Source: a virus (Duplodnaviria > Heunggongvirae > Uroviricota > Caudoviricetes). Taken from it: DNA of 64,000 bases. The stretch covers positions 1 to 64,000 of IMG/VR virus record IMGVR_UViG_2778261164_000001; one strand, 5' to 3'. Both the position numbers and the translations under genes were made by a program. Each line of letters opens with the position of its first letter. Position 1 is the stretch's first letter. The notes beneath the pieces were generated by a model, which worked only from the letters and a program-made list of their open reading frames with translations, had not been told where the DNA came from and searched no databases. Below are positions 1 through 12,324 of the stretch, one piece after another.

Positions 1-433
1 CTTTAAATACCTCCTCCATATTATTTAAGCCAGCTATCTTATTAATGGCTTCTGAGTGTTTTCGTAACGGCATAGCCATTTCAGCTTGATTTTTAATTAT
101 TTGAATATGCTCATTTGCATCACTGGGAAAAGCCGCCTGATACTGTTTCTGTAAAAATACCATTTGTTCACGAAACTGGTGTGCAATTCTCGTAACTTTT
201 GGTAAAGACTCAAGTTCTTTTCGAAAACAATCATTAATTAATTCTTGTTTTTTAACTGTTCCAAACTGTTTAACTAAACTCTTGTAAATATATTCTGAAT
301 TTAATAAACCACTTATCTTTTTATGCCTCACTCCTTTAATTTCATTTAAATAATCATAAAAGGCAGTGCCTTCAGCTTTATTATTAGAGTTAAGCGAAAT
401 GTGTTTAATATCCTTCACTTTATTCACCGTCAT
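1..433 (-). CDS. hypothetical protein, partial (C-terminus lies beyond window start)
   Basis: Minus-strand frame opens with ATG at 433 and runs to position 1 without a stop (at least 144 codons, MTVNKVKDIKHISLN...); Lys-rich, AT-rich; start overlaps stop of the 420-926 gene by 14 nt. Confidence 0.4.
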   Translation of the reverse strand, partial: MTVNKVKDIKHISLNSNNKAEGTAFYDYLNEIKGVRHKKISGLLNSEYIYKSLVKQFGTVKKQELINDCFRKELESLPKVTRIAHQFREQMVFLQKQYQAAFPSDANEHIQIIKNQAEMAMPLRKHSEAINKIAGLNNMEEVFK

Positions 434-926
434 CTTGTTTTAAACACCCGTCATTTTTAGCTTCTGTATAAATACTGGAAATACCATCCAGAGTGAATGA
501 TGTGATTCGACTCGAACCGATATATACATCTATGTTTTTTTCATTTGTAGATGACACTGCCTTCCAAAATGAATACCATTCCCTACGATTAGGAGCAGTG
601 TTTTGCGTGCCAATATTAAAACTATCCGGGCCAACAATTAAAGTAATTACATCTGCTTTACGTGATATTGTGTCGCGTGTAGAAAAATCGGCATTCTCTT
701 TTCCTCCGCTTACATACAAATTTCTTCCAGCGATATGATCTTCTGAACCTTCCCTTGCTCCAGCATCACAAGAAAAGTTAATTGTGTAACCATCGTCATT
801 GGTTGCAGAGATTTCTCTCCACCCTTGCTCACCTCCTACCGTCCAAACGGTAGAACCTGCCATTGCTGATAATGGCAGAAAAGAGGACATTAATAAAAAG
901 CTATACAATGACTTATACAATTTCAT
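420..926 (-). CDS. secreted/periplasmic protein of unknown function
   Basis: 168-aa ORF; N-terminus MKLYKSLYSFLLMSSFLPLSAMA looks like a cleavable signal peptide (hydrophobic core, A-x-A site); AT-rich. Confidence 0.55.
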   Translation of the reverse strand: MKLYKSLYSFLLMSSFLPLSAMAGSTVWTVGGEQGWREISATNDDGYTINFSCDAGAREGSEDHIAGRNLYVSGGKENADFSTRDTISRKADVITLIVGPDSFNIGTQNTAPNRREWYSFWKAVSSTNEKNIDVYIGSSRITSFTLDGISSIYTEAKNDGCLKQDDGE

Positions 927-1014
927 ATTTTTATCCTTTTGTTTTTAGATATTATAGGCATAGTCCATATTGTTAGATCCACTATGCCCGGAGAATTTAA
1001 TATTATTTATTAAA

Positions 1015-1506
1015 TTATGGGGCTACACCCGGCCCCCTAGCTCGTTCTTCAAGCGTACCCTGTACGTTTTGATGGCGCATTCCTGGGGCATTTCTTATTG
1101 AGTCAATGCCATTTCTTCCAACATCTTCTTTATTAACGGCATTGCTCGCCACCAGCACACCCCAGCTAGGGATAGCAAAATCAGGAGCGGTTTCGCATGC
1201 CTTTACCATATAATCGAAAGTGCTTCGATTGATCTCGTTTGCGTCGGGATTTAATAGGCGAGAATATTGATATTTAGCATTTTCGTTGGTTGCGACTTTA
1301 TATAGTTCTTGCTGCACCATCGCTTCAGAAAGTTTAAGACGTTTCATATCTGACAGTAACTTCTTGCGCATGGATTCGTCTTGACTGACAGCAAAGCCGT
1401 AAACGTGCCCAAGGTATTTCGTATAATCGGTACAAATCTCCTTTACGCTTGATGCTGCATTAACAGTCCCAGCCATAAATAATAACGGTAGTAATAGTTT
1501 TCTCAT
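1015..1506 (-). CDS. secreted/periplasmic protein of unknown function
   Basis: ATG at 1506 preceded by GGTGAGG; product begins MRKLLLPLLFMAGTVNA (signal-peptide-like); ORF-track start at 1533 is an in-frame alternative. Confidence 0.55.
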   Translation of the reverse strand: MRKLLLPLLFMAGTVNAASSVKEICTDYTKYLGHVYGFAVSQDESMRKKLLSDMKRLKLSEAMVQQELYKVATNENAKYQYSRLLNPDANEINRSTFDYMVKACETAPDFAIPSWGVLVASNAVNKEDVGRNGIDSIRNAPGMRHQNVQGTLEERARGPGVAP

Positions 1507-1602
1507 TATAACCTCACCTGCCTTATAACTCATTTAGGGTACATATTTTCGCCTTTAAAAAAAAGAGGTTATTAGATCCAATTGTGTATTTATTAAGCAT
1601 GC

Positions 1603-1619
1603 AGTGCTCTAATAAATTT
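1603..1619 (+). promoter_or_regulatory. C1 repressor operator-like 17-mer (AGTGCTCTAATAAATTT) upstream of c4-icd-ant
   Basis: One mismatch to P1 C1 operator consensus ATTGCTCTAATAAATTT; sits where P1 has Op51. Confidence 0.6.
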
Positions 1620-1933: not shown

Positions 1934-2155
1934 ATGGTTAATGCCAATCCTTGCGCACGCCCAGAATTCATCTGGCGTTTCTATTCCTGTAAAAAACACC
2001 ACTATCACTTCGTTATCGCAGCAACTGAAGACGAAGCACGCTCTCAATTGCCTGATGGCCCCTGCATTTTTACTGCCCGTTTTTCAACTGACTCGCGCAA
2101 TTCACTTAGTTACTGGAGCCTCCCCTTCTCTGCCAACGTTCAGGGGGGTTTATGA
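1934..2155 (+). CDS. icd: Icd-like protein (73 aa), translationally coupled to ant
   Basis: 73-aa ORF with GAGG RBS; stop overlaps ant start (ATGA); position between candidate c4 and ant as in P1 immI. Confidence 0.65.
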   Translation: MVNANPCARPEFIWRFYSCKKHHYHFVIAATEDEARSQLPDGPCIFTARFSTDSRNSLSYWSLPFSANVQGGL

Positions 2156-3189
2156 AAACACCTCTCGTCACCCGTAATGAAATAGCCGAAGCGATCGCTT
2201 TGCATACAACCTGTATGCCGACACGGGAGATCCCCGGCGCAATTGCCAACTATTTCATGATAACCAGACGTTTTTATACCCGAACAGATAAGGCTGTGAT
2301 CAACAGGCTACTGATAGCCGAGATCAGGGATTATTTGATTGAACAAGGACGTCTACGTTACGCAACAGTGGCAGCAGAAATGAGAAAGGAGGCGCGCAGA
2401 ATGACCGGTAATAATTTGAATGTTGAAAAACCAGCACCTGTTGCTTCAGCTACGCCATCACCAGCAGTGAATGTTATCTCCAACACCGGAGACACAATCG
2501 ACAGCCTGACACTGTTAAAGATGGTCAATGAAGCGCGTAAGTTATGTGGGGAACCAGAGGTTCGGAACAACAAATTCATCGAAAAAATACTCGATGAGCT
2601 TGATGGTGAGCACTACACAAAAAGTGTAGTGGAAAAAATGAACAAAACATCAATGCTTGTCATAACCATGACTTTCAAACAAGCCCTGCGAGTCGCCGCG
2701 CGCGAGTCAAAAGCGGTCCGCCGTTCGCTGATCGACAAACTGGAAGAATTGCAGCAGGCAAACTCCCCTACCCCATCGATCCCCCAAACATTACCAGAAG
2801 CTCTACGCCTGGCTGCCGAGTTAGCAGAACAGAAAATGCAGTTGGAACAACAGCTGGTGGCCGCAGCCCCTAAAGTCGATTTTGCCGACCGGGTATCAGT
2901 GGCCAATGGAATCCTGATCGGGAACTTTGCAAAGGTCGTTGGACTTAAGCAAAACGCCCTTTTCTCATGGTTGCGCCAGAACGGCATTCTCATGGCTTTT
3001 GGTGCGCGCAAAAACGTACCGCGCCAGCAGTACATTAACGCCGGGTATTTCACGGTGAAAGAAGTGGTGCTGGATGATGAAAATGGCTACCAGATACGGC
3101 TGACGCCCCAATTAACGGGTAAAGGCCAGCAGTGGTTAACTCGCAAGCTACTTGATGCTGGTTTGTTAAAACCAGTAGCAATAGGTTAA
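2152..3189 (+). CDS. ant: antirepressor Ant (Ant1 form; internal in-frame starts could give Ant2)
   Basis: 345-aa ORF; C-terminal region (PQTLPEALRLAAELAEQK...GKGQQWLTRKLLDAGLL) is an antirepressor-type domain shared with the KilA-like ORF downstream. Confidence 0.8.
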   Translation: MKTPLVTRNEIAEAIALHTTCMPTREIPGAIANYFMITRRFYTRTDKAVINRLLIAEIRDYLIEQGRLRYATVAAEMRKEARRMTGNNLNVEKPAPVASATPSPAVNVISNTGDTIDSLTLLKMVNEARKLCGEPEVRNNKFIEKILDELDGEHYTKSVVEKMNKTSMLVITMTFKQALRVAARESKAVRRSLIDKLEELQQANSPTPSIPQTLPEALRLAAELAEQKMQLEQQLVAAAPKVDFADRVSVANGILIGNFAKVVGLKQNALFSWLRQNGILMAFGARKNVPRQQYINAGYFTVKEVVLDDENGYQIRLTPQLTGKGQQWLTRKLLDAGLLKPVAIG

Positions 3190-3352: not shown

Positions 3353-4153
3353 ATGCAACAAACATTCAATGCGGATATGAATATATCAAACCTTCATCAA
3401 AATGTCGATCCTTCAACCACTCTGCCTGTTATTTGTGGTGTTGAAATTACGACCGACCGCGCTGGCCGTTACAACCTTAATGCTCTACACAGAGCGAGCG
3501 GACTCGGTGCCCATAAAGCGCCAGCTCAATGGCTAAGAACGCTGTCAGCCAAACAGCTCATCGAAGAGCTTGAAAAAGAAACTATGCAGAATTGCATAGT
3601 TTCGTTCGAAGGCCGTGGCGGCGGCACTTTTGCCCATGAATTGCTCGCTGTGGAGTACGCAGGCTGGATTTCTCCCGCGTTTCGGCTGAAGGTAAACCAG
3701 ACATTTATCGACTATCGAGCCGGAAGATTACAACCTGCTATTCCGCAGAGTCTCCCTGAAGCTCTCCGTTTGGCTGCCGACCTGGCAGAGCAAAAGCAAC
3801 GGCTGGAGCAAAAAATGCTTATGGATGCACCTAAAGTCGAATTCGCCGAACGCGTTGCTACCGCCAGCGGGGTTCTAATCGGCAACTATGCCAAAGTGCT
3901 CGGTCTGGGCCAAAACTATCTCTTCACCTGGTTGCGTGATAACGGAATTCTGATCGCAACCGGTGAACGCAGGAACGTCCCCAAACAAGAATACATATCC
4001 CGTGGGTATTTCACCCTTAAAGAAACCGTGATCGATACAAGCAATGGAAGCAGGATTTCTTTCACGACTCGTATAACCGGCAAAGGTCAGCAGTGGCTGA
4101 TGAAGCGATTGCTTGATGCTGGTGTGCTGGTACCTGTCGCGGCAACGCGCTAA
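3353..4153 (+). CDS. kilA: KilA (KilA-N domain protein with Ant-like C-terminal domain)
   Basis: 266 aa, the size of P1 KilA; C-terminal similarity to Ant; precedes repL. Confidence 0.75.
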   Translation: MQQTFNADMNISNLHQNVDPSTTLPVICGVEITTDRAGRYNLNALHRASGLGAHKAPAQWLRTLSAKQLIEELEKETMQNCIVSFEGRGGGTFAHELLAVEYAGWISPAFRLKVNQTFIDYRAGRLQPAIPQSLPEALRLAADLAEQKQRLEQKMLMDAPKVEFAERVATASGVLIGNYAKVLGLGQNYLFTWLRDNGILIATGERRNVPKQEYISRGYFTLKETVIDTSNGSRISFTTRITGKGQQWLMKRLLDAGVLVPVAATR

Positions 4154-5324: not shown

Positions 5325-5447
5325 TACAATCGTTGCGGGTGCTTGAGGCTATCTGCTTCAGGCATTACCCGAAAAGCAGATAGAAGAAAGCCCCAGATAA
5401 CATTACGCGTCCTGCAAGACGCTTAACATTAATCTGAGGCCATATCT

Positions 5448-5654
5448 ATGCTTAGCATACGTAGATTAGCCTCTTACCGACCAAAAGGTCAAGGAGAAGC
5501 AGGCTATGAAGCAGCAAAAAGCGATGTTAATCGCTCTGATCGTCATCTGTTTAACCGTCATTGTGACGGCACTGGTAACGAGGAAAGACCTCTGCGAGGT
5601 ACGAATCCGAACCGGCCAGACGGAGGTCACTGTCTTCACAGCCTACGAATCTGA
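5448..5654 (+). CDS. mok-like overlapping reading frame of the hok locus
   Basis: 68-aa ORF starting upstream of hok and overlapping it in another frame, the classic mok arrangement. Confidence 0.45.
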   Translation: MLSIRRLASYRPKGQGEAGYEAAKSDVNRSDRHLFNRHCDGTGNEERPLRGTNPNRPDGGHCLHSLRI

Positions 5655-5661
5655 AAGGTAA
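5506..5661 (+). CDS. hok: Hok/Gef family type I toxin (51 aa)
   Basis: MKQQKAMLIALIVICLTVIVTALVTRKDLCEVRIRTGQTEVTVFTAYESER; shares TRK-LCE-R-R-G-EV-F-AYES pattern with Hok; AGGAGAAG RBS; below the ORF-track size cut-off. Confidence 0.8.
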   Translation: MKQQKAMLIALIVICLTVIVTALVTRKDLCEVRIRTGQTEVTVFTAYESER

Positions 5662-9390: not shown

Positions 9391-11097
9391 TTACTCAGAG
9401 TCACCGGCATCAATCGTGTCGCCGCTTATAAAGTTAAGCCCGCCTTTTTTGGCCATTGTCAGCGTTACACGAGTGAAGTAATCAGCGCCGTTGCGTGGGT
9501 GCATATCGTTGATAGCCGAACCCCACAGCGTGGTACGGTTGACCAGCGCCGGAGTGGTCGGATGCTGGAACGGGATGGCCGGGACAGCATCACCAGTCAC
9601 GAAGCCTGCTTTACCCGGATTTTCATCACGGACGTAGCACAGCACATCCATCGAGCTGAACTGAATGTTCTCTGTCGTTAAGTTCTTACAAATACCAGCA
9701 GGTACTTCGTACACTTTCACGTTACCGAACAGGGTACCGATGTAGTGAACATACGGAGTCTGGATATAGTCTTCGGCTGGCTGGAAGAAATCCTTCGGCA
9801 ACTGTTTGAAGAAAGATGCTGCATCAGCACCAGCAAACATCCCCATCGCACCAGAAGATTTAACGCGCTCAATAATGTCGCGATATACAGTCTGGAATTT
9901 GCCACGAATGATGGTTGCCCATACATCAAAGGACTGGTTAACCGGCAGAGCGATGTCAAAGGTGTCGGTCGCAAGAGTACGCCAGATCATGATGCGGAGA
10001 CGCAACATATCCTGTTCATGGGACAGGTATTCTTTCAGGGTGCGGAACTGTAGGGAACCCAGGTCCAGACCAAATTCACGCTGTGCTTCATACGCCGCCT
10101 GTACCGTGTGCTCAGCCGCGATAACGAACTGGCTTGGGAACAGGGTGTATTTCTTCATTTCGTGGTTGATCAGCGGGATCAGCTCAGGAGCGGCTTCAAT
10201 ATTGATTTCCGTCTCAATTGCGATCTCAGTGCCTTTATCCGGCGCTTTGGAGAACGACAGGGCAATCTGACCAATGTTGTAGTTCAGAGAGCAAGTAACA
10301 GTGATTTGCTCACCAGCAGCATTAGTAAACGAGTGAAGTAGGCTGCCGGAACCGTTATCAACAACAGACTTAATACGGTTAACGTAGATGTTAGTGCGAC
10401 CTTTTCGGATTGGTACATTCTGGCCTTCGAAGTCTTCCATCTTGAAGGTTGCGGTTTTGCTGGTGCCATCGGAGCTTGCCACCAGCACATAGCGGCGGCG
10501 TAACTGGCTGTACACACCGACGGATTGCATGTCCAGAACATCACCAGCAGCATAAGAACCAAAAGAGGAACCTGCCACGTTAAAGACTTCATAGATGTCG
10601 GACTGGTCACGCGTAACCGGAATGAAGGTACACGCATCAGCGGTAGCTGCCCCCAACTGAACAGGCAGGATCATCGCGAGGAATAAAGGCAGACGCATAA
10701 CACCGTCAGAAACGCTCATCATCTCTGCTGCGACGGATTCCAGCATCGCTTTATTAGTGGCATCCATGCTGTTGCGGGTGGACTCAATCAGGCAGTTTTC
10801 CAGCGTCTGGTGGCAGGAGGCCAGAATTTCCGGACGCGGCATAGATTTATGTGCTGCGGCGTAGTCAGCCAGTGCACTTGCCCACGCTGTAGCGATTTGA
10901 GCGGTGGCATTATCAGAGATACCCGCAAAAACCGGGTCTTTACGTGCAGCTTCAAGGATAGATGCGGCACGCGCGGCATCATCTTTAATGAATTGGTTAT
11001 CAGTACCGAACTGCGCAGTGCTTGCCCAGCCAAGCACAGCTTTAGAGCGTTTTGCGATATCTGCAATACGATTCTGGTATTCGCGTAAGTTACTCAA
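9391..11097 (-). CDS. large structural protein, possibly major head protein (P1 gene 23-like)
   Basis: No in-frame ATG near the 5-prime end; TTG at 11097 has AGGAAG RBS 6 nt upstream (568 aa); ORF-track TTG at 11118 is the alternative; first gene of operon beside parS. Confidence 0.5.
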   Translation of the reverse strand: MSNLREYQNRIADIAKRSKAVLGWASTAQFGTDNQFIKDDAARAASILEAARKDPVFAGISDNATAQIATAWASALADYAAAHKSMPRPEILASCHQTLENCLIESTRNSMDATNKAMLESVAAEMMSVSDGVMRLPLFLAMILPVQLGAATADACTFIPVTRDQSDIYEVFNVAGSSFGSYAAGDVLDMQSVGVYSQLRRRYVLVASSDGTSKTATFKMEDFEGQNVPIRKGRTNIYVNRIKSVVDNGSGSLLHSFTNAAGEQITVTCSLNYNIGQIALSFSKAPDKGTEIAIETEINIEAAPELIPLINHEMKKYTLFPSQFVIAAEHTVQAAYEAQREFGLDLGSLQFRTLKEYLSHEQDMLRLRIMIWRTLATDTFDIALPVNQSFDVWATIIRGKFQTVYRDIIERVKSSGAMGMFAGADAASFFKQLPKDFFQPAEDYIQTPYVHYIGTLFGNVKVYEVPAGICKNLTTENIQFSSMDVLCYVRDENPGKAGFVTGDAVPAIPFQHPTTPALVNRTTLWGSAINDMHPRNGADYFTRVTLTMAKKGGLNFISGDTIDAGDSE

Positions 11098-11234
11098 TTT
11101 ACTCTTCCTTAAACACAAGGCACTTGTGTGAATCCCTTTTCGGAAGAGATTTTATTGAAAGTCACTTGTTGACTTTCTCGTGACAAGCAATTTTTTTATT
11201 TTTTTCGGGAGTAGGGGCGGAAGGTAAAATCCAA

Positions 11235-11320
11235 GGTGAAATCGTGGCGATTTCACCTTGAAATTTTAGATGGATTTACTTTAAAAACAGTATGTTAATA
11301 GTGAAATTTGAATGGCGAAA
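11235..11320. other. parS: parS partition site
   Basis: GTGAAATCGTGGCGATTTCAC palindrome carrying heptamer ATTTCAC and hexamer TCGCCA boxes, AT-rich spacer (IHF-like), second GTGAAAT...TGGCGA set; immediately downstream of parB. Confidence 0.8.
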
Positions 11321-11322
11321 GT

Positions 11323-12324
11323 TTAAGGCTTCGGCTTTTTATCGAGGCTCTTTCTAAGGATATGCCCAATCATCCTGTCGAGTTCTTCCTGTAGCTCTTT
11401 TGAAAGTCGATTAAACTCATAAGAAAATGCCCGGCCTTTCACGCGCTTCCTTGCAAAGCGATCCTTGTCCTCAAATTTCCATAATTCAGTAACTACGGAC
11501 TTATCTTTAGAACCTTTATCCGTGAGTAGTGAGGCTTCCTTTGTTATCAAGCGCAGGATTTTATTTTTAACTTCATCTTCGGCCATTTCTTCAATGGATA
11601 AGATGTCGTTTATTTCCGGGGATATGTTTTGAATAAGCTGATCAAACTCTAAATTCTTGTTCCCCATTTCGTCGCCAACAGCACAAAGCGTTTTGTAGTC
11701 CGAAAAGGTTAATTCCGACTGCACAGGGAAAAGGGCGACTAATTCTTCCGGAGCACTCGCTGCCTGGAGAGCACGCGTGACCTTCGCCTGAGACAGCCCT
11801 TCTTTGGCTGCAATATCCTTCTGACTCATCCCATCATTTTTCATTCGCATCAAACGCAGACCTATTTCTCGAATGCTGTGCTGCAATGCTGTCTGAACGT
11901 CTTTCGCTAAATTTTGCGCTTCCTGAACGCTGATCTCCTGGTCCGTGACTAAAACCCGCAACCCTACGTTCTCTAAGATGGCAGAAGCTCGACGCCGGGA
12001 ACCATCCAAAATTTCAATTTTCCCTGTAGCCCGTCTAACACCTATTGCAGGGTAAAATTGCTGATGCTTAATAGTGCTTCGGATACTTTTTAATGATTTT
12101 GGCGTAAGAGATGCCTGGTCACGCCCGTTGTTATGCTGATCAACAAAGGTATCGCTTTCTACCTGGTTCGGAGGTATTACCTCTTCAATAAATGTGGCCT
12201 GGCGACCAGTTGATAACTTGAATACCTGCTCGACTCGATCGCCAGAGGCTGAAGAACTATCAAATCCGCTTAATATTGAAGGATTAAGGGTTCGCCCAAT
12301 TGTTGGTCTGTTTTTCTTTGACAT
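11323..12324 (-). CDS. parB: ParB partition protein
   Basis: 333 aa, the size of P1 ParB; follows parA and precedes parS. Confidence 0.9.
   Translation of the reverse strand: MSKKNRPTIGRTLNPSILSGFDSSSASGDRVEQVFKLSTGRQATFIEEVIPPNQVESDTFVDQHNNGRDQASLTPKSLKSIRSTIKHQQFYPAIGVRRATGKIEILDGSRRRASAILENVGLRVLVTDQEISVQEAQNLAKDVQTALQHSIREIGLRLMRMKNDGMSQKDIAAKEGLSQAKVTRALQAASAPEELVALFPVQSELTFSDYKTLCAVGDEMGNKNLEFDQLIQNISPEINDILSIEEMAEDEVKNKILRLITKEASLLTDKGSKDKSVVTELWKFEDKDRFARKRVKGRAFSYEFNRLSKELQEELDRMIGHILRKSLDKKPKP

Follow-up and report, generated by a model that had tools for sequence, protein, structure and literature searches.

A three-gene cassette of predicted envelope proteins is an allelic form of the P1-family sim locus and varies with the muralytic domain of the tape measure

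HK97 gp15 is a prophage-encoded exclusion protein of the cell envelope that acts at the tape-measure DNA-entry step. The Streptococcus phage TP-J34 lipoprotein Ltp, also prophage-encoded, acts at a DNA-entry step involving the tape measure (PMC3952083), and T4 Spackle (gp61.3) inhibits the tail lysozyme gp5 in the periplasm (PMC7677548, PMC7650644). In phage P1, the sim (superimmunity) genes are reported to exclude superinfecting phages once these have adsorbed (Devlin 1982; Kliem & Dreiseikelmann 1989, as cited in PMC8546580). This exclusion is attributed to SimC, for which we used the 264-residue precursor with its signal peptide as reference. The sim genes are counted among the variable regions of low guanine-plus-cytosine (GC) content in P1-like elements (PMC9603915, PMC6906374); neither paper describes the genes that replace sim, and the alternative genes at this already published hypervariable locus are unstudied. 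Here we describe one such replacement, located at the left end of a 64,000-nucleotide stretch (positions 1 to 64,000 of IMG/VR record IMGVR_UViG_2778261164_000001; the whole stretch is called the window below), which is a P1-like (IncY-type) phage-plasmid. Judged from sequence and synteny, its three genes, named orfA, orfB and orfC, are an allelic form of the P1-family sim locus, that is, a recombination-swapped low-GC module coding for three predicted envelope-targeted proteins. The orfA protein carries a motif of the P1 tape measure Sit, and the alleles of orfB co-vary with those of the SLT domain of Sit.

The assignment to the sim locus rests on position and on shared sequence. The P1 annotation places simC, simB and simA between pmgC and the C1 operator Oc4, on the strand opposite c4. 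The cassette fills the same slot between pmgC and the C1 operator/c4/icd/ant region, on the same strand and divergent from c4. Oc4 (AGTGCTCTAATAAATTT; 1603–1619, plus strand), which was mapped from the P1 annotation via DNA alignment, forms the right-hand boundary of the variable locus, and the sequence of phage P7 rejoins there. Rfam matches place the c4-a1b1 targets at 1680–1732 and the C4 antisense RNA at 1801–1886; icd, ant1/2, kilA and repL come after the C4 region. The left side was read in NZ_CP103741, the closest plasmid (99.75% identity across window 1–1596), where the whole third gene (357 residues, annotated as 'SH3 domain-containing protein') is followed by pmgC, tub, pmgB and sit. 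The cassette is directly upstream of pmgC-tub-pmgB-sit and on the same strand. An earlier note, made from the window alone, had placed the cassette where P1 carries its sim functions and had suggested completing the third open reading frame (ORF) to the left. P1 annotation, synteny with NZ_CP103741, DNA alignment and the Rfam C4 match all agree with that placement, with transcription away from c4, and the completion yielded the full 357-residue gene.

The three genes are tightly packed on the minus strand. The ORF list gives orfA at 1015–1506 (163 residues) and orfB at 420–926 (168 residues); orfC is an open frame at 1–433 that starts with the ATG at 431–433 and contributes the first 144 of its 357 codons, the remainder lying left of the window. 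orfB and orfC overlap by 14 nucleotides (420–433), as read off the sequence. The GC content is 0.312 for the orfC part, 0.385 for orfB and 0.437 for orfA, compared with 0.475 for the whole window, and at third codon positions it is 0.26, 0.28 and 0.38 respectively, compared with 0.43–0.50 in ant, kilA and repL. Lysine accounts for 12.5% of the orfC fragment in the window. Both orfA and orfB begin with a predicted Sec signal peptide that combines one or more basic residues, a hydrophobic core, an AXA-type cleavage site and an N-terminal hydropathy maximum. In orfA the predicted peptide is MRKLLLPLLFMAGTVNA (1456–1506, minus strand), cut after VNA (VNA/A), and residues 1–15 have a low predicted local distance difference test score (pLDDT) in the AlphaFold model. 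In orfB it is MKLYKSLYSFLLMSSFLPLSAMA (858–926, minus strand), cut after AMA (AMA/G), with pLDDT below 50 over residues 1–23. The gene layout, the overlap, the AT-richness, the lysine-rich third product and the two signal peptides had all been pointed out in the earlier note and are borne out by these data.

orfA is a long form of SimA. An alternative in-frame ATG at 1533 would add nine residues (172 in total), but the 163-residue start is favoured because GGTGAGG lies 5 nucleotides upstream of the ATG at 1506; RefSeq picks the same start in the near-identical plasmid. Residues 1–41 of orfA are 92.7% identical to residues 10–50 of the 52-residue P1 SimA (BLASTP). Since orfA is three times as long as SimA, the P1 protein is more aptly called a piece of orfA. 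In the plasmid database PLSDB, 84 plasmids have an orfA of 215 residues and about 35 the form found in the window, and about 150 have only a 48-residue stump. Together with the shared 5' end, these counts argue that P1 SimA is a remnant left by cassette replacement. The likeness to the P1 locus thus comprises the identical slot and orientation, a common upstream region and the common first ~45 codons of simA and orfA; the P1 genes also code for signal-peptide proteins, and their DNA is also low in GC. The two loci differ in that SimB and SimC are unrelated in sequence to orfB and orfC, that P1 SimA is a truncated remnant without the helical domain and the Sit-like motif described below, and that P1-type cassettes lack an association with SLT alleles. 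The comparison with P1 sim proposed in the earlier note was accordingly positive for the start of orfA and negative for homology to SimB or SimC. That note had also held a match to P1 Sim against its own proposal, and such a match exists in part, over the first ~41 residues of orfA (93% identity). Its statement that none of the three proteins was recognizable no longer stands: orfA starts out as SimA, orfB is a member of the YfjT/YkfB family and orfC has a probable SH3b domain.

The AlphaFold model of orfA has a confident helical domain at residues ~20–130, predicted to be periplasmic, followed by a low-confidence tail that appears flexible or disordered. The helical domain looks new. A PTP-like phytase assignment (PF14566) was considered and rejected: the score of 26.8 bits is below the cut-off of 27 with partial coverage of the profile, the model is all-helical, and there is neither a CX5R catalytic loop nor a match to the PTP fold. 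Sequence searches of the PDB with orfA and orfC, and an NCBIfam search with the cassette proteins, gave no useful match. Decay of orfA seems frequent. In an E. albertii plasmid (NZ_CP126910; L009, 2210–2885) a frameshift splits the gene into ORFs of 66 and 162 residues, and two further copies (P0027 and P0030) have tails that are frameshifted before or after the motif.

This motif, NAPGMRHQNVQGTLEERARGPG, comprises 22 residues in the tail of orfA (residues 139–160; window 1027–1092, minus strand) and was found by hmmscan, BLASTP and Smith–Waterman alignment. With hmmscan it matches phrog_2533 (E = 3.2e-5) and is specific to that family, which probably is the Sit family, given its 1130-position profile and a BLASTP match at the equivalent residues of Sit. 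Compared with P1 Sit residues 937–973, orfA shows 51% identity over 41 residues, including VQGTLEERARG (BLASTP); the matched stretch, P1 Sit residues 946–973, is NGRGMRREVVQGTLEERARGKGTA. The Smith–Waterman score of 90 compares with 37.8 ± 5.1 for shuffled sequences, none of which reached 90 in 2000 trials. At the DNA level there is no nucleotide identity beyond 8 nucleotides, so the motif is not a recent copy, and recent DNA duplication was rejected as its source. The motif is retained in orfA homologues with as little as 23% identity, and divergent elements also have it in their own Sit, sometimes in a version even nearer to that of orfA. In one such element (L017) Sit has NAPGMRHQAVQGTLAERAYGKG, or in longer form NAPGMRHQAVQGTL, and the orfA homologue has NAPGMRHQKVEGSLMERARGPG. 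In the window, the recombination that removed the coiled tail of orfA ends immediately after the motif. In Sit the motif is located ~80 residues past the SLT domain, in a region that is internally repeated: a partial second copy is present at residues 1016–1026 of P1 Sit and, in Sit of the L002/L007 type, ~68 residues after the first. It follows the pattern G(I/V)DGL(Y/F)DKL(INAR/RNSP)GMR, with RNSP as the majority form and INAR as the other. We found no similarity to Sit in SimB, SimC, orfB or orfC.

The orfB protein has ~145 mature residues, two invariant cysteines and a WYxFW / DGCLK signature. Precomputed PF27224 (YfjT) matches cover its cluster and almost all relatives, and its RefSeq name is 'YfjT/YkfB family phage-associated protein'. 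E. coli K-12 YfjT is a distant relative (~24–28% identity; BLASTP E 1.6e-4 to 6e-11). Outside K-12, the relatives found form 26 clusters, all on ~90-kb P1-like contigs of Enterobacteriaceae, and the family occurs in 177 PLSDB plasmids. Its alleles are only 27–51% identical to one another, compared with 98% for the neighbouring orfA. The profile searches that the earlier note had called for on the two secreted proteins were hence informative for orfB (PF27224) and for the orfA motif (phrog_2533), and sub-threshold for orfA in Pfam. A text search of the literature found no functional study of YfjT or YkfB. The K-12 proteins (PF27224; cryptic elements CP4-57 and CP4-6) share the length, the signal peptide and the two conserved cysteines of orfB; K-12 yfjT differs in lying after ypjK-yfjS in an integrative island without tail genes. 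In CP4-57 (L011, 14446–15616), yfjT follows ypjK, which encodes a 78-residue glycine-zipper membrane peptide, and yfjS, which encodes an inner-membrane lipoprotein. The ypjK-yfjS-yfjT trio loosely recalls the membrane-protein-plus-orfB arrangement of the type III cassettes described below; no sequence similarity was found between K-12 YpjK or YfjS and the upstream cassette genes.

We compared the cassette with those of P1, P7, phage Ro157c2YLVW, several plasmids and 93 IMG/VR loci. P1-type cassettes encode SimA (52 residues), SimB and SimC, and P7-type cassettes an outer-membrane lipoprotein and a secreted coiled-coil protein. Type I cassettes combine a 215-residue orfA with an orfB allele. 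Type II, the type of the window, has the 163-residue orfA, a different orfB allele (the window-type allele) and orfC. In type III, a third orfB allele is accompanied by a multi-pass membrane protein of 116 residues and by one further gene, which is orfC or, on the opposite strand, a DUF4760 gene. Divergent orfA-orfB pairs are found in Salmonella arizonae and Klebsiella-type elements. The junctions between types are sharp in DNA alignments. To the right of position 1367 the window is 95% identical to P1, which has simB-simC instead on the left. The junction with type I (the A215-B haplotype of phage Ro157c2YLVW) is at 1027: up to this position orfA is 98% identical, and beyond it the ~52-residue coiled tail and the orfB allele differ. 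The junction with P7 is at ~1605, at the operator. One locus (L033, IMGVR_UViG_2913167280_000003) is chimeric, with a 5'-truncated window-type orfB, orfC, a fragment of a type III orfB and the DUF4760 gene; it has the look of a scar left by recombination between two types of cassette.

The tape measure of P1 is Sit, whose SLT lytic-transglycosylase domain is presumed to open the wall on injection (PMC9024508, PMC12810830). A Pfam match puts this domain at residues ~750–900. We extracted Sit from the IMG/VR loci and divided it into regions; 43 loci have an orfB homologue. The N-terminal 694 residues of Sit, its C-terminal 235 residues and pmgC are nearly uniform or have freely assorting alleles of their own. 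Residues ~695–905 (the SLT block), about 6–8 kb from orfB, sort into discrete alleles: a is P1-like, b is set apart chiefly by a deletion of 8–10 residues plus substitutions right after the presumed catalytic Glu770, and c is only 39% identical across the block, with a sharp right edge at PDNAVIDQSTGLAFTPGDSPFEKGG. Cassette type I occurs with allele b (22 of 23 loci), type II, as in the window, with allele c (9 of 11), and type III with an a-like allele (8 of 9). The association between orfB allele and SLT block has a Cramér's V of 0.84, which none of 2000 permutations reached, whereas V is only 0.17–0.30 for the parts of Sit located between that block and the cassette. A strong association with the distal SLT block and a weak one with the nearer regions fits selection for a matched pair rather than plain linkage. 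When P1- and P7-type cassettes, which are spread over the SLT alleles, are added (74 loci, five cassette types), V is 0.58–0.60 at residues 695–867 and 0.20–0.32 in most other regions. PLSDB provides a partly independent replicate of the pairing. Window-type orfB DNA is present in 35 plasmids and SLT-c DNA in 61, and at least 33 of the 35 have both, compared with a chance expectation of ~3.6 among ~600 P1-like plasmids. The SLT-c block has an ordinary GC content (0.459), and the idea that it was acquired together with the AT-rich cassette was rejected on this ground. Five loci (L047, L049, L057, L067 and L019) have a Sit that is ~100–130 residues longer (1229–1263 residues), with a second tblastn match to P1 Sit residues 1–139; this points to an N-terminal duplication in the tape measure that would predict a longer tail.

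The part of orfC in the window is 100% identical to the start of WP_077717761 (NZ_CP103741). The full protein has a Lys/Gln-rich N-terminal region of variable length with degenerate Q-K-Q repeats, followed by an LPxPxQ element and a single hydrophobic helix at residues ~226–244 (Kyte–Doolittle peak 1.83). The putative C-terminal SH3b domain, which lies outside the window, is nearly invariant in the family alignment and ends with GWITRTYTKPLK. SH3_3 (PF08239) scores 26.3 bits at residues 297–351 against a Pfam cut-off of 27; PF08239.18 is precomputed on 39 of the 42 clusters of the family, and the RefSeq name is again 'SH3 domain-containing protein'. The family was found only on P1-like elements and occurs in 64 PLSDB plasmids. 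Because orfC has one helix and no signal peptide, its N-terminus is likely to be cytoplasmic, which would put the SH3b domain in the periplasm.

We propose that the cassette proteins would act in the periplasm of the carrier cell on the Sit that P1-like virions bring in. orfB would bind or inhibit the SLT block in an allele-specific way. The disordered tail of orfA would display a copy of the motif that is most conserved in Sit after the SLT domain and might serve as a decoy or competitor for the contact made by that motif. orfC, anchored in the inner membrane with its SH3b domain reaching the peptidoglycan, is possibly a scaffold. Passage through the cell wall and DNA entry would be blocked, or the harm done to the wall by virions of the same kind as the element would be limited, or both. 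A match to the element's own SLT allele makes sense because the commonest superinfecting phages are kin and because the cell needs protection from its own kind of transglycosylase. Whether envelope proteins act against incoming Sit at all, for exclusion, for self-protection or for both, in a manner like Spackle but unrelated to it, seems to us an evenly balanced question. A more specific version, in which P1-family phage-plasmids possess a modular system against injection, located in the periplasm and co-adapted to the tape measure of the same element, with orfB as inhibitor and orfA as mimic decoy, is put forward tentatively. The likeness to T4 Spackle lies in the proposed logic only, a small secreted protein of the resident phage directed against the tail muralytic domain of a superinfecting relative; no sequence or fold relation to the cassette proteins was found. 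The Spackle target is a spike lysozyme, whereas the target predicted here is an SLT-type transglycosylase within the tape measure, and the cassette comprises three genes and comes from a temperate phage-plasmid. HK97 gp15 and Ltp likewise are prophage-encoded envelope proteins at tape-measure-linked DNA entry, but each is one protein only (gp15 a bitopic membrane protein, Ltp a lipoprotein) without homology to the cassette, and within the literature searched neither motif mimicry nor co-variation with a muralytic domain is reported for them.

The cassette might instead be generic 'moron' cargo that changes the host envelope to the advantage of the lysogen (stress or serum resistance, adhesion, or protection against unrelated phages or colicins) and has no specific relation to Sit. 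The link between orfB and SLT would then reflect lineage structure, and the motif would be a shared peptidoglycan- or envelope-binding element. This would suit a locus known as a low-GC hotspot for recently acquired genes (PMC9603915, PMC6906374), where P7 has its outer-membrane lipoprotein and secreted coiled-coil protein, and it would suit both the YfjT/YkfB homologues in K-12 cryptic elements without tail genes and the P1- and P7-type cassettes that show no SLT association. However, neither linkage nor clonality predicts an association that is strongest at the distal SLT block and weak nearer in sit, the families of orfA, orfB and orfC are found almost exclusively on ~90-kb P1-like elements, and the orfA motif is specific to the Sit family; we regard generic cargo as rather unlikely. 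The same allele pairing bears on self-protection, in which the cassette, made constitutively or soon after entry of the element's own DNA, would neutralize its own Sit transglycosylase left in the periplasm ('lysis from without'), with exclusion as a side effect. The need to match one's own enzyme directly explains cognate orfB and SLT alleles on one genome, and resistance to lysis from without is among the effects ascribed to T4 Spackle (PMC7650644). Yet P1 simA, simB and simC are dispensable for plaque formation and lytic growth in a CRISPR interference (CRISPRi) map (PMC10695390), and many P1-like elements with the same SLT alleles have no orfB homologue. Sequence data alone do not separate self-protection from exclusion, and as the sole role of the cassette we think it unlikely.

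A role in which the cassette proteins help Sit during virion assembly or injection, for example as chaperones or processing factors directed at the shared motif, would account for the position immediately upstream of pmgC-tub-pmgB-sit on the same strand and for the motif common to orfA and Sit. orfA and orfB are predicted to be exported, though, and tails assemble in the cytoplasm. The P1 late promoter LPsit is downstream of the sim genes, which are non-essential (PMC10695390), Sim, SimB and SimC have 0 occurrences in the P1 virion proteome paper (PMC9024508), and many viable P1-like phages lack the locus or have another version of it. We therefore consider this role very improbable.

Several observations weigh against an action on Sit. 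None of orfA, orfB and orfC matched SimB or SimC in an all-against-all BLASTP at E < 0.01, and they fall into different PHROGs; homology to SimC in particular is lacking. The earlier note's suggestion of superinfection exclusion or envelope-level defence has new, indirect support in the Sit motif of orfA and in the co-variation of orfB with the muralytic alleles of Sit, and this missing SimC homology on the other side. PADLOC-DB 2.0 gave zero matches at E ≤ 1 for orfA, orfB, orfC, SimB and SimC, a promoter scan found no convincing sigma-70 promoter upstream of orfA, and the fold of orfB does not resemble known lysozyme or transglycosylase inhibitors (Ivy, MliC/PliC, PliI, PliG), whose family models gave no match either. 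Sit is outside the window, so that the co-variation argument uses near-identical relatives (L002 is 99.75% identical over window 1–1596). Four of the 43 loci (L023, L031, L063 and L073) are exceptions to the pairing, which is also asymmetric: SLT-c occurs with other cassettes too, in ~27 of 61 plasmids. The sampled elements are partly clonal (eight E. fergusonii plasmids have seemingly consecutive accessions), and the permutation figures therefore overstate independence. A link between the presence of orfA and the second motif copy of Sit (RNSP or INAR; V = 0.58 in 43 loci) did not survive the inclusion of P1- and P7-type loci, as RNSP is just the commoner form, and was discarded. Finally, physical interaction, inhibition, expression in the lysogen and an exclusion phenotype are what we infer from the sequences.

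Three features elsewhere in the window deserve mention. A second low-GC stretch at 11000–11800 (0.39–0.44, compared with ~0.50 in its flanks) may be another cargo hotspot like sim. A hok/sok-type toxin-antitoxin locus is present at 5337–5661: Rfam identifies sok at 5337–5511 (114.9 bits), and an ORF at 5506–5661 (plus strand) encodes a Hok-like protein of 51 residues whose counterpart in NZ_CP103741 is annotated hokD. The translations of Ant1 (2152–3189) and KilA (3353–4153) have clearly homologous C-terminal halves with the common pattern …LPEALRLAA(E/D)LAEQK…GKGQQWL…LLDAG…; in relatives, both genes bear the annotation KilAC-domain antirepressor.

Phage P1 serves as a workhorse, and resistance genes of Enterobacteriaceae often travel on P1-like phage-plasmids. 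Within the literature searched, it appears to be new that SimA is the stump of a larger gene which carries a tape-measure motif, and that a gene of the YfjT family is matched to the muralytic domain of the tape measure. The motif copy and the matched orfB and SLT alleles turn a vague idea, secreted proteins near immunity genes, into a specific and testable one. If the proposal is true, it would allow a forecast of which P1-like elements exclude which others, explain the mosaic SLT domain of Sit, and give a role to K-12 yfjT and ykfB and to the uncharacterized YfjT/YkfB family. It would also provide a first mechanism for the 40-year-old 'superimmunity' locus, and the alleles of the tape measure would then record an arms race between enzyme and inhibitor.

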